From Eledone cirrhosa (Eukaryota): a stretch of 64,000 bases of DNA. Both the position numbers and the translations under genes were made by a program. Numbering within the stretch: the stretch's first letter is position 1; each line of letters opens with the position of its first letter. This document shows positions 40,656 through 46,862 of this stretch, piece by piece. The stretch spans positions 113,460,001-113,524,000 of the forward strand of contig OZ024740.1 in assembly GCA_964016885.1 (NCBI GenBank). Reading direction: 5' to 3'. Under the pieces are notes generated by a model, which was not told the origin of the DNA, did not search any database, and saw only the letters and a list, made by a program, of their open reading frames with translations.

Positions 40656-41949
40656 CATGTATACATATATATATATAAATATATAAATATATATATATAT
40701 ATATATATATATATATATATATATATATATATATATATTAGAAAGTGAGGTTTTTTTTACAAAATGAAAAATAACGGAGGTGTCCTACACGAGGGAAAGT
40801 ATAAAGAAAAAGAGATGAAATCGAAAATGCAACTGGAGCCTTATTTAAAAAAAAATATACATATATTTATTTGGTTCCTTTACCGGTTTCGCAGTTCTTC
40901 TGCTTTTCAAAAGGTGAGTTGAGATGGAGGGTCTGTGGTTTTTCTTACATCTGGTTGGTCTCTGAATGTTACCTGTTTTATATGGAAAAAGTGGCTCGAA
41001 ATGCCAGGTTTTTCGAGAAGTAATTTGATTGGTTTGTCAATAATTATAATAAATTTCGCGCCAGTTCGCGTTATAATAGTTCTTCAAATAAGAGGGGGGG
41101 GTGTTGTCACAGGTTGTTTTTTTCATATATGAGTGTTTGAATTTCTTTTTACTTGAAAAAAGTGGCTCACGAAGGCTTTTTTTTGGTTGGTTATAAATGA
41201 AATTATTGCTGTCACGTGAACAAGTTTTCATTAAATTTTCGTGCCCTTATTTGGAAATCCATTCTGTAGCCTTTTTAGAGAATTTTATGATAAGTGAAAG
41301 ATAATGGTCAAGAGAAAGGGATGGGAGAATTGTTCTGGTTCAGTGAATATGGTTAGTTCGCTGGGGTATCAGAATTCAGATTTTCTATTGAATAAAGAAA
41401 GTAAAGATATGTATGTTTATTTGTGTGCTTGTGTGTGTGTGCGCGCGTGTGTGTGTGTGTGTGTGTGTGTGTGTTGTGTGTGTGTTTGAATTTCTTCACT
41501 TAAAAAAAGGTGGCTCACGAAGGCTTTTTTTTAATAAACGTGATTTGATTGGTTATAAATGAAATTTGGCTGTCACGTGAACAAGTTTTCATTACATTTT
41601 TGCGCCCTTATTTGGAAATCTATTCTGTAGCCTTTATAGAGAATGTCATGACAAGGGAAAGACAGGGGTCAAGAGAAATGGGATTGGGAGAATTGTTCAG
41701 AGACCAACCTGATGTGAGAAAAACCATAGACCCTCCATCTCAACTCACCTTTTGAAATGCAGAAGAACTGCGAAACCGGTAAAGGAACCAAATAAATATA
41801 TATATTTAAAAAAAAATAAGACTCCAGTTGCATTTTCGATTTCATCTCTTTTTCTTTATACTTTCACTCGTGTAGGACACCTCGGTTATTTTTCATTTTG
41901 TAAAAAAAACCTCACTTTCTAATATATACCCACCACACGAAGACCGAAA

Positions 41950-44900
41950 ATGCCACCAAAGTCTCAACAAAACAACAACTCACTGAACCAGGACATCTTA
42001 AATGAACTCAAAGAGATTTCCTCTAAACTCTCAATTGTGACCAACAAAGTGGACCAAATACACATCTATAAAAAAGGACCCCACAAAGAAACAGAAAATA
42101 CCCAAGAGACGAATATTACTCCAGTATTAACTAAGCTAATCGAAACCATTGAAACAGCAATGCTCCAAAAGCTGGAACAACCGTTAGAACCCAATCTACG
42201 AGATGTCCACTCAGTGAAAAACACCCTAATCAACATATGGACTCAAAAGCTCACAGCCCGCAAATTCGCCCTTTGGAATCTCCTAAAAAATAATGGCAAG
42301 GCAGACATATATGAAAAGTTGCTAAACTCTACCCCAATCATCCTCCCAAATAAACTCCAAATAAAACCCATCCCGAATGAACCAGAAAACCAACAAAGAT
42401 TTAGGGAAAAGATGGCATTGGAAACATTTAAAACAGAAATAGAACTGTTGCGATTAAGAGCCAACTCCAACGAACAAAAATTCAAGTCACTCGACCAACA
42501 GATGGACACATAAATCTCAAAGCACTCTGAAGGCCTACTCTACAAAAAAAACCTAAAACTTTGGAAAGAAAACTGCGAGGATGAAGAACTAACATCCCTC
42601 CAGCGATGGGAAAAAAACGCCACCTGGTTCAACAACTACGAAATGGACTTCAAAAATGAACAACATACAGGTAACCCATTTTAAAAACAAACTAAAACTC
42701 ACACACGACATGCACAACAAATAACAAAAAAGTAACAACACGTCCAACATACCCCCAGCAAAACTATAACGATAATCCCAGAAACCGTAGACAAAACTAT
42801 AACCCTACTAACAAAAACCAAAGATCCCCGAACACAAGACAGGACCTGATCTGCAGATCACAACCCACACAAAACCTATTCCCAAACCGTAGACCCCTGC
42901 CCACACAGAGCCTGTTCCAAAACCGTAGATCCCAACCCACACAAAGGAACAAAATCTAAAACCCGGACTATCAACGAACCGAACCTCAATACGTCCGAAA
43001 CGTCTATACAAGACCACACAACAACAGGGGAAATACCATTAGATATAATAATACAATTGAAAAAACATTCCAGAAAAATCATTTTTTAGACCAAGGCTAC
43101 ACGACTCACGACACCCGGTGGCACAAACCGATTTTGAAAAACCGAAAATAATTAACCTTTCAAAAAAAAACCTCTCAGCCCAACAAGTAAAAATTCTCTC
43201 CAAAGGACTTAAATTCACACCAACACTACAATACTCTAACCCCAATGAGATAAATGACGATATCTCACACTTCTGTAGAAAATTACGTCTCACAGAGGAA
43301 TTCTTTGACAAGGAGAATAACAACGAATCAATTGTACGGAATAAAAGCAGCTACAACCCAACAAAAGGTAGAAACAGAGTTCTGGACAAATTTTGTGACC
43401 ACATAGCTACCTTCCCATACCATGAACTACCGCAACCTAAACCCAAACCCAACAAGAGTCGAAGGGAATGGGAGATTATCCATGAACTAAAAAACAATAC
43501 GGACATTATAATTAAGAAGCGGACAAGTTGTCATTATGGAGGCAGAAAAATATGAAAATGCTATGTTCTCTCTCTTACAAAATACTAATTACTATGAAAG
43601 AGTAAAAAACTACCAGCAATCAAAAATAATGACCAAATTAAACACACTGATTTATCGATACCAGGAAGACCTAACTAAAAAGGAACGCGATTATTTAACA
43701 AATTTTGAATACAAAACCAGCAATCTTTACGGACTTCCGAAGATCCACAAGTGTAAAATAATCAACAATGCCTGTAAACAATCCACAACAGCCTGCGTCA
43801 ACACACAATACCCCACAGACCTTAAATTAAGACCAATTGTAGCGGGCCCACAATGTGAAACACACAGACTGAGCAACTTTATAGACATACTACTGAAACC
43901 AATACTGAAAACACATACCAAGCCTTGTAAGAGACGATCTGGACCTCTTAAACCACCTCCCCAAACATGTCAACAATGACACTATTATTGTGTCTTTCGA
44001 TGTAGTGAATCTCTACATAACGATCCCACACCAATACGGACTAGAAGCAATAGGATTCTGGCTAGAGAAATATCCCAATGAGATACCTGACAGAATAGAA
44101 AAAAGATTCATCACCGAGGGATTAAAATTCATCTTACAGAACAACTTTTTTGATTTCGATGGCAATACTTACAAGCAAATATCGGGGACTGCGATGGGTA
44201 CAAAAGCCGCTCCAACTTATGCCAACTTAGTCATGGCATACTTAGAAGTCCAGATATATGAACAGTCCAAATCAAAATACGGATTGAACTTCCACAAATA
44301 TTTATCAGAGAATTGGAAACGCTACTTGGATGATTGCCTCATTCTTTGGTCCCACACACTCGACCAACTGAAGGATTTCAAAAACTTAATAAACGGCATC
44401 AATAACCACATCCAATTCACAATGGAATACAGCCAAGATCAACTCCCATTTCTGGACATCTTAATCTTAAAAAAAGACATAAATATCGAAACTGACATAC
44501 ACTACAAACCAACAGATTCCAAACAATATCTGCTATTCACCTCCAACCATCCAAAGCACACAAAGACGAACATTCCTTTTAACCTAGCAAGAAGAATTTG
44601 CACAATTGTCTCCAATTATGAAACGCGAAATGAAAGACTTCAAGAATTAAAGGAAATTCTACTCGAGAGAGAGTACCCACTATTACTAATAAATAATGGA
44701 ATAGAAAGGGCTAAAGCAATAGGCATTGATGAATTACGGAAACAGAAACAAATTCAAGGTACGTCCAATATTCTATCATATATCTCAACACACAACCCAA
44801 GAAATGCGGAAGCTTACAACACTATTCACAAGAACATCCCACTAATAAAACAAAACCCAAGAATGAAAAAAGCCCTCGAAACACACAAAATAATTAAAAG

Positions 44901-45378
44901 CAAAAGACAACCAAATTCACTGAAAACGTTACTCACCAATGCCAAATTACCTACCACAAACCCACAACCAAGTATCAAAAAATGTGGTCGCTCTAATTGT
45001 GGAACCTGCACTCACCTCATTGAAGGCAACACGTATACATTTAAATCAGGACAAAATTTTACTGTAAAAAATCACTTCACTTGATCATCAAAAAATCTAT
45101 TTTATGCCATTAAATGTATAGGATGCAATGAAGATTATATAGGACAAACTAAACTCACACTCAGAAACAGAATGACAGTTTATCGCCAACAATTAGGAGA
45201 TCCAACCACGAGACAGATACCACTAAGTGCACATCTAGACATTTGCGCAAGTAATAAGACACCCAAATTCCAAGTCTTCCCATTTTACCTTTGCGCTAAT
45301 AATACAACAGAACAAATACGAATAAATAAGGAAAATATGTTTATTCAAAAATTTAGACCAGCATTAAATATGGTTTAA
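41950..45378 (+). pseudogene. PLE polyprotein (N-terminal region, RT, Zn-finger linker, GIY-YIG endonuclease), broken by stops and frameshifts
   Basis: INLSKKNLS..LSKGLKFTP, LYGLPKIHK, LRPIV, SFDVVNLY, GTAMG, RYLDD, LPFLD, CGRSNCGTC, NLFYAIKCIGCNEDYIGQT..R. Confidence 0.95.
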
Positions 45379-46824
45379 TATACATTATGTCAACACCATA
45401 ATATGACATACACACACACATAACACCTTCTATTTCAGAAAATAAAAAAACCGAACTAAATAAACCTTAACATACGTTTGCACTGACAATACAACAGAAC
45501 AAATACGAATAAGTAACGAAAACATGTTCATTCAAAAATATTCCTACTAAAGGAATCATTTTCCTACACACACACACACACAATATATATATATATATAT
45601 ATATATATATATATATATTCTCTTCATCTTAACATGCTAACCATACTCCCACACACATAACACCCATACACACACATAACAACCCCCACACACACAACTC
45701 CCTCCCCCATTTCTACTAATAGAACCACTTTCCTACACACATATATACACACACACAAAATATATATTCTCTCCATCTTAACATACTCGCACACACACAT
45801 AACACCCATATACACACACACACAACTCCCTCCCCCATTTCTACTAATAGAATCATCTTCCAATACACACACACACACACACACACACACACACACACAC
45901 ACACACACACACACACACACACACACACACACACACACACACACACACACACACACACACACACACACACACAAATAAACATACATATCTTTACTTCAAT
46001 AGAAAATCTGAACTCTGACACCCCAGCGAACTAACCATATTCACTGAACCAGAACAATTCTCTCAATCCCATTTCTCTTGACCACCTCTTTCCCTTGTCA
46101 TAACATTCTCTATAAAGGCTACAGAATAGATTTCCAAATAAGGGCGCAAAAATGTAATGAAGACATGTTCACGTGACAGCCAAATTTCATTTATAACCAA
46201 TCAAATCACGTTTATTAAAAAAAAGCCTTCGTGAGCCACCTTTTTTTTAAGTGAAGAAATTCAAACACACACACACACAACACACACACACACACACGCA
46301 CACACACACAAGCACACAAATAAACATACATATCTTTACTTTCTTTATTCAATAGAAAATCTGAATTCTGACACCCCAGCGAACTAACCATATTCACTGA
46401 ACCAGAACAATTCTCCCATCCCTTTCTCTTGACCATTATCTTTCACTTATCATAAAATTCTCTAAAAAGGCTACAGAATGGATTTCCAAATAATGACACG
46501 AAAATTTAATGAAAACTTGTTCACGTGACAGCCATAATTTCATTTATAACCAACCAAAAAAAAGCCTTCGTGAGCCACTTTTTTCAAGTAAAAAGAAATT
46601 CAAACACTCACATATGAAAAAACAACCTGTGACAACCCCCGCCCCTCTTATTTGAAGACCTATTGTAACGCGAACTGGCGCGAAATTTATTATAATTATT
46701 GACAAACCAATCAAATTACTTCTCGAAAAACCTGGCATTTCGAGCCACTTTTTCCATATAAAACAAGTAACATTCAGAGACCAACCAGATGTGAGAAAAA
46801 CCACAGACCCTCCATCTCAACTCA

Positions 46825-46862
46825 CCTTTTGAAAAGCAGAAGAACTGCGAAACCGGTAAAGG
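46825..46862 (+). ncRNA. pLTR hammerhead ribozyme with U3-A8 core (copies 40877-40914 -, 41748-41785 +, 22279-22316 +, 57598-57635 +)
   Basis: cctt-TTGAAAA-gcag aagaa ctgc-GAAA-CCGG-TA-aagg. Confidence 0.8.

Follow-up and report, generated by a model that had tools for sequence, protein, structure and literature searches.

The question raised by this stretch of Eledone cirrhosa DNA (64,000 nucleotides (nt), contig OZ024740.1, positions 113,460,001 to 113,524,000, here called the window and numbered from its first letter) is whether a hammerhead motif in the pseudo-long terminal repeat (pLTR) of a Penelope-like element (PLE), with U3-A8 in place of the core pair C3-G8, is a genuine state of its family, how such a core arose, whether it cleaves, and whether it ties the element to a retrozyme-like array with U3-A8 cores in the same window. 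The reading judged fairly probable is that a 5′-inverted, broken insertion of Neptune type carries a pLTR hammerhead descended from the minimal type I hammerhead of PLEs, and that its U3-A8 pair is a compensatory replacement.

The hammerhead motif and its element

An intact type I hammerhead was located in the 3′ pLTR at 46825-46862 (+) and an identical one in an inverted copy at 40877-40914 (-), both at the places given in the original prediction, with the letters cctt-UUGAAAA-gcag/ctgc-GAAA-CCGG-UA-aagg. In the former, stem I is formed by 46825-46828/46859-46862, the core pair by U3 (46829) and A8 (46834), and stem II by 46836-46839/46845-46848 (4 bp), followed by GAAA (46849-46852), the palindrome ACCGGU (46852-46857) and A17 (46858), the last base of the GUA cleavage triplet. 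The features of a minimal type I hammerhead of PLEs (a Watson-Crick pair at 3-8, U4, G5, A6 and A9, GAAA, and UH) are thus present as a U3-A8 variant, and the nucleotide that is commonly, though not universally, bulged out between 9 and 10.1 is absent, as in 5 others of the 24 motifs described below. The strict descriptor gave no match in 20 dinucleotide shuffles of the window on both strands, and a relaxed one gave 0.3 matches per window shuffle. No hammerhead family was present among the 150 of 260 Rfam matches of the window that were listed, these being microsatellite-driven, and no exact match to the motif was found in viral contigs.

U3 and A8 were kept in all five window copies of the PLE hammerhead, the whole motif in only two (46825 and 40877). 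Of the remaining three, for which retention of U3-A8 had also been predicted, both bases are indeed there, but none is a whole motif: the copy of the short upstream pLTR (41748-41785, +) carries A9U, C11.1G and a disrupted stem I mark the one near 22279, and in the one near 57598 the palindrome is replaced by CCGA and stem I contains an A.G mismatch. Accordingly, the set of stems I and II, G10.1-C11.1 and the palindromic stem III is complete at 46825 and 40877 and not at 22279 and 57598. The latter two copies lie in solo 3′ fragments of a 'TA' subfamily, both with tail and decayed hammerhead (22045-22457, + and 57205-57775, +). Since the copies at 40877, 41748 and 46825 belong to one insertion, the window holds three independent insertions with the motif, not five.

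From left to right, the main insertion consists of (TA)n, an inverted 3′ end, a short pLTR, the coding region, the 3′ pLTR and (TA)n. The inverted part is a 5′-truncated copy of the 3′ end with a tail of about 70 nt, ending in (TA)n (40739-41698, -); the short upstream pLTR, also with tail, lies immediately 5′ of the start of the open reading frame (ORF) (41696-41928, +); the broken coding region comprises an N-terminal part, reverse transcriptase (RT), a CX4CX2C linker and a GIY-YIG endonuclease (41950-45378, +); and the 3′ untranslated region and pLTR, in which the tail is absent, ends in (TA)n (45974-46934, +) and contains an internal duplication (45974-46273 vs 46319-46612, 84%). At 1-915 (-), cut by the window edge, lies a further RT fragment of this family with 97% identity to 43690-44605. 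The RT matched PF00078 (E 4e-6, under the curated cut-off) and the endonuclease PF01541 (GIY-YIG; E 1e-5, over the cut-off), and the protein was 65-75% identical to an intact 772-amino-acid homologue, P0001, over residues 13-772. An RT followed by a C-terminal GIY-YIG identifies an endonuclease-positive (EN+) PLE, and the pLTRs, inverted 5′-truncated copy and optional tail typical of such elements were all found, the tail being about 70 nt here vs 30-40 nt in the published description of PLEs. Some copies end with this tail and one without it, which resembles the two RT start sites of the anole PLE (PMC11167929). In the endonuclease CCHH motif both Cys and the second His are kept, and the first His, present in P0001, is Tyr in the decayed window copy. 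Named protein homologs included oyster proteins and symbiont-bin records, and no RT relatives were found in viral contigs. The high microsatellite content of the window is reminiscent of cephalopod DNA.

The coding region is disabled by frameshifts near 43515 and 43910 and by in-frame stops at 45082-45084 and 42511. The window copy, called autonomous in the original prediction, is therefore so in type only. The stop at 45082-45084 is TGA where homologs have Cys; some Naiad PLEs encode selenoproteins, but a plain mutation is more likely here than selenocysteine, since the copy is otherwise decayed.

The assignment to the Neptune type, also predicted, agreed with the RT and GIY-YIG domains, the linker, the spacer and the RT3/RT4 motifs. 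The CX4CX2C linker is followed by a spacer of 24 residues before GIY-YIG, vs 25 in the two Neptune rows and 7 in the one Nematis row that were counted in the supplement of PMC8557442 (linker and spacer compared by eye with the text of its Fig. S2), and RT3 and RT4 appeared nearer to Neptune than to Poseidon, Nematis or Hydra (by eye, text of its Fig. S1). The (TA)n target fits Neptune and is not specific, as (TA)n insertion has been reported for Hydra and Naiad PLEs as well. The putative membership of the Neptune clade is supported by these motifs, the RT tree containing no named Neptune references.

Family state and covariation of the 3-8 pair

Variants in 46680-46925 were collected by aligning to it, with a likeness threshold of 80%, the reads or contigs of four sequencing runs; members of an older C3-G8 family of greater divergence would escape recruitment at this threshold. 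Run X1 contributed 5,817 contigs, whose summed depth was not taken as copy number, and run X22, from another study with the same species label, 2,764 raw reads. In X1, T>C reached 3% at no position and the sole A>G position was 46737, so that C3 and G8 each stay below 3%. In X22, the changes to C3 and G8 were not among the 40 best-supported of 71 variant rows, the rows outside these 40 including three of the seven T>C and three of the six A>G places. The other two runs, X19, with five partial reads that all lie outside the motif, and X9, with a single contig of depth 2.7 in which the core is kept, were not counted as support. Together with the five window copies and the covariation at 3-8 described next, these data support U3-A8 being the state of the family and not a product of decay, as had been predicted; a CUGANGA consensus, which was to have overturned that claim, was not seen in the window copies or in X1.

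From an alignment of 24 of the 120 homologs listed, 98 related loci were obtained (80 kept of 371, plus 18). A loose scan of these loci gave 37 matches (26 C-G, 4 U-A, 1 G-C, 1 A-U and 5 non-Watson-Crick at 3-8) over a background of 0.4 matches per strand in shuffles. With a stricter scan in which positions 3 and 8 were left open, 24 distinct motifs were recovered, 21 from the loci and 3 from the window, and 24 of 24 had a Watson-Crick pair (18 C-G, 4 U-A, 1 A-U and 1 G-C). After removal of one near-duplicate (L086) and two C-G motifs of the window, the observed pairing (21/21) or covariation was reached in 0 of 500 shuffles, a control that is inflated by relatedness among the loci. Covariation was counted for the 3-8 pair only, as stem register was lost in the MAFFT alignment.

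In an RT tree of 53 rows built by a quick method, the RT of the window nests in a clade with support 100, within which C3-G8 is carried by all five loci whose core was detected (L002, L005, L007, L008 and L081). L002 and L007 share with the window motif the CCGG palindrome and the absence of the bulge, and a short stem II, a 4-nt stem III insert and the missing bulge are common to the window motif and L002, L005, L007 and L008. The other U3-A8 loci (L014, L052 and L077) fall on three separate, distant branches, so that U3-A8 occurs at four separate places in the tree, the window PLE included. Because it stands on separate RT branches, U3-A8 is most likely a compensatory swap with several independent origins in PLEs.

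Two single loci carry the remaining pairs. A well-formed PLE minimal hammerhead at L047:117-151 has G3-C8, and another at L028:1969-1999, the sister in the RT tree of the U3-A8 locus L014, has A3-U8; with the C-G and U-A motifs, all four Watson-Crick pairs are represented at 3-8. Neither G3-C8 nor A3-U8 in PLEs was found in print in a literature search that covered few subscription papers. Relatives of the window PLE protein, several with hammerheads, are also encoded in 18 loci from bacterial metagenome-assembled genomes (L081-L098), which most likely represent host sequence that was binned with symbiont genomes.

The surprise that the original prediction attached to U3-A8 in a PLE pLTR is reduced by an example in print since 2014: Cervera and De la Pena (2014, PMC4209133) reported U3-A8, with about 1,300 matches, for Schistosoma mansoni in the pLTRs of its Cercyon PLEs, and their supplement gives a PLE-linked UUGAAAA core (row S. 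mansoni (4)). Like the window PLE, these elements combine type I, pLTR, U3-A8, UUGAAAA, short stem I and palindromic stem III, whereas the window PLE differs in its Neptune type, the absent bulge after A9, a 4-bp stem II, a 4-nt CCGG insert and A instead of U at position 17. The hammerhead of a Marsupenaeus japonicus PLE (supplement of PMC4209133) shares with the window the short stem II, 4-nt stem III insert and A17, but, like L002, L005, L007 and L008, has C3-G8. Natural U3-A8 hammerheads described as earlier found active in vitro (Perreault et al. 2011, PMC3088659) show the same core covariation, neither a tie to PLEs nor N17 being mentioned in the passage used. The Anolis Poseidon element PAc (Frangieh et al. 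2024, PMC11167929) resembles the window PLE in its pLTR hammerhead, optional tail and AT-rich targets and differs in its Poseidon clade, C3-G8, overlap of the motif with the start codon, and biochemical testing. Further background is given in PMC3884650 and PMC6765202. The combination of U3-A8 with A17, and hammerheads of cephalopod PLEs, were not found in the literature, most subscription papers lying outside the search. The U3-A8 swap is thus real but already published for PLEs, and the window family is a new example that adds one Neptune family to those known with it; such families are missed by descriptors limited to CUGANGA.

Counterevidence and predicted folding

Several observations weigh against the preferred reading. 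The quick-method RT tree, lacking named Neptune references, gives as the four closest relatives proteins without DNA; run X1 may be the source sample of the window itself; and 5 of the 37 loose-scan matches are non-Watson-Crick at 3-8. AC>TA at 46824-46825, present in 54% of X1 depth, replaces the fourth pair of stem I by A.G, so that stem I of this majority (TA) subfamily is 3 bp plus a mismatch, and further variants in the list affect stem II and the palindrome (46839, 46848 and 46854). Compensatory change within the family was not seen among the 40 rows listed, and the fact that no listed variant falls in the 13 positions of the core does not reach significance (~0.14; 36 of 246 positions variable). 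These uncompensated variants weigh against strong current selection on the motif. Folds with a U3-A17 pair were, finally, predicted to be more stable than the active-like ones, both as monomer (-7.5 vs -5.8 kcal/mol) and as dimer (-22.5 vs -21.1 kcal/mol).

The active-like dimer is a predicted double hammerhead joined through ACCGGU, and in the monomer the predicted pair probability of stem III was 0.0. The U3-A17 pair, with a predicted probability of 0.39, extends stem I with a gain of 1.4-1.7 kcal/mol. Position 17 is A in the window family and C or U in the three other U3-A8 PLE motifs. With A at this position U3 can pair with A17, and most free RNA would probably be in an inactive fold; the modelled pairing argues for very low activity. 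Published precedent exists for such competition, a C3-G17 pair being the proposed cause of an at least 300-fold lower rate of minimal hammerheads with G17, and G3 with C17 having a similar effect in the same paper. PLE hammerheads that have been tested were inactive as monomers and of low activity as dimers, that of the anole PLE cleaved only after PLE protein was added, and its cleavage was dispensable for insertion in vitro (PMC11167929).

By analogy with these other PLEs, we infer that tandem transcripts would be cut slowly, 3′ of the GUA triplet. In an ancestor of the window family the tertiary core pair C3-G8 would have been replaced by U3-A8; two motifs on a tandem transcript would pair through the palindrome and cut slowly, probably only with help of the PLE protein, and cleavage would trim read-through RNA.

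A possible, if doubtful, alternative is that the motif derives from a hammerhead and no longer cleaves, being trapped by U3-A17 and a weak stem I and persisting as a passenger of the pLTR or as a protein-binding site. The probability and lower predicted energy of the U3-A17 pair, the rate loss with the analogous C3-G17, the weakened stem I of the majority subfamily and insertion by the anole PLE without hammerhead cleavage fit this view, but fixation of a double compensatory change implies that the 3-8 pair was under selection, in the ancestor at least, the ORF-linked copies keep stem II, G10.1-C11.1 and the palindrome, and the energy gap is just 1.4-1.7 kcal/mol with tertiary contacts ignored. 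More speculatively, and with rather little probability, U3-A8 with A17 might act as a natural off switch, U3-A17 covering the cleavage site, that is released only by dimerisation together with PLE protein, PLEs using all four 3-8 pairs as tuned by 3-17 competition. If U3/A17 did regulate cleavage, the family would offer a simple natural system for the slowness of PLE hammerheads and the role of the PLE protein.

The retrozyme array and other elements of the window

A tandem retrozyme-like array with units of about 315 nt and both ends in (TA)n lies at 3984-5614, with a strand switch at 4812-4816, and is covered in type by published animal non-LTR retrozymes (PMC7229834; bioRxiv 10.64898/2026.07.22.740005). 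Its cores are three UUGAUAA and two GUGAUAA, stem I is long and bulged, stem III is closed with a non-palindromic loop III, and C17 is present in four of five copies. In the two units with G3 against A8, at 4428-4452 (-) and 5098-5122 (+), which are mirror positions of the inverted array, the mismatch is expected to inactivate.

As the original prediction had stated, no further homology between array and PLE was visible: as high a score against the PLE pLTR was reached by 161 of 200 shuffles, and BLASTN of the array against the whole PLE gave no match. A 9/12 likeness by eye between the tail end of the PLE and one end of the array was set aside as AT-rich chance. Array and PLE share an outward-facing inverted layout with (TA)n ends, and both look young, the retrozyme units being 98-99.7% alike and the PLE ORF copies 97%. 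For the array, this layout points to PLE-type mobilisation. The same pattern is, however, seen in a Hydra-like PLE insertion (32867-34644), inverted and ending in (TA)n, whose hammerheads at 32910 (-) and 34539 (+) have C3-G8, a long stem II and a TGCGCA palindrome, and the U3-A8 core therefore gives no evidence for a helper role. The proposed comparison of insertion signatures and ages, made within the window, thus returned likeness in (TA)n, inversion and youth, in a pattern that is not unique to this PLE. The second PLE type, found at 23724-25656 as well as 32867-34644, has an RT4 like Hydra clade rows of PMC8557442.

That the Neptune-type family mobilises the U3-A8 array, as had been suggested, is unlikely. 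PLEs have been proposed as helpers or parents of animal retrozymes (PMC7229834; bioRxiv 10.64898/2026.07.22.740005), and the common layout, (TA)n ends and apparent youth agree with a helper role; it is opposed by the lack of common sequence, by the equal pattern of the Hydra-like PLE, and by the number of families, since about seven hammerhead families occur in the window, five with C3-G8, and two of seven sharing U3-A8 has a probability near 0.26 at the background of 3/21 PLE motifs. Descent of the retrozyme from the PLE pLTR, or the reverse, with U3-A8 inherited, is very improbable. Of the Xenopus retrozyme families, 24 of 57 match known elements at their termini, nearly all PLEs, and the two window motifs agree in U3-A8, G10.1-C11.1 and the lack of a bulge after A9, but the pLTR homology seen for Xenopus retrozymes is absent between the window PLE and array, the retrozyme differs in its long bulged stem I, closed stem III and C17 in four of five copies, and U3-A8 stands at four separate places in the RT tree, in unrelated PLE lineages. 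The predicted relatedness was thus not borne out, and U3-A8 in both is most likely convergence; as the swap recurs, a common U3-A8 core is unfit for pairing retrozymes with helper elements. That the motif arose in an AT-rich repeat by chance, or by decay from CUGANGA, is hardly credible, being largely refuted by the run-variant, shuffle and covariation results: the AT-rich surroundings, the Rfam matches listed without a hammerhead and the three of five copies failing the descriptor are outweighed by its zero matches in shuffles, by C3-G8 relatives with equivalent pLTR position and architecture, and by the joint fixation of U3 and A8.

Additional C3-G8 hammerhead-like motifs were noted at 2866 (-) and 63928 (-), with related copies near 8028-8121 and 10054-10289, and at 35097 (+), 35585 (-), 39959 (+) and 56873 (+, doubtful); they fall into four or more families, and their palindromes are mostly 6 or 2 nt long. 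A tandem repeat of about 521 nt (about two units, 96-98% alike) lies between (TA)n tracts at 54737-55830, and motif scans found no hammerhead core in it. A bacterial promoter scan of the window stayed at chance level and is not applicable here.

In both X1 and X22, loose ends and strand-switch joints of the PLE family cluster at 46786-46789, and the hammerhead is covered about 5x as deeply as the sequence upstream, which suggests that truncation or inversion occurs preferentially some 40 nt upstream of the ribozyme motif. Downstream of both TA-subfamily solo pLTRs, beyond a short (TA)n, lies an antisense piece (22463-22681 and 57779-57926, 90% alike) that we take to be SINE-like (short interspersed nuclear element); no tRNA gene was called in the window, these pieces included. 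In the 57598 copy, 17 nt of the pLTR recur after the SINE-like piece, and the association points to either 3′ transduction or a non-autonomous unit of composite make-up.

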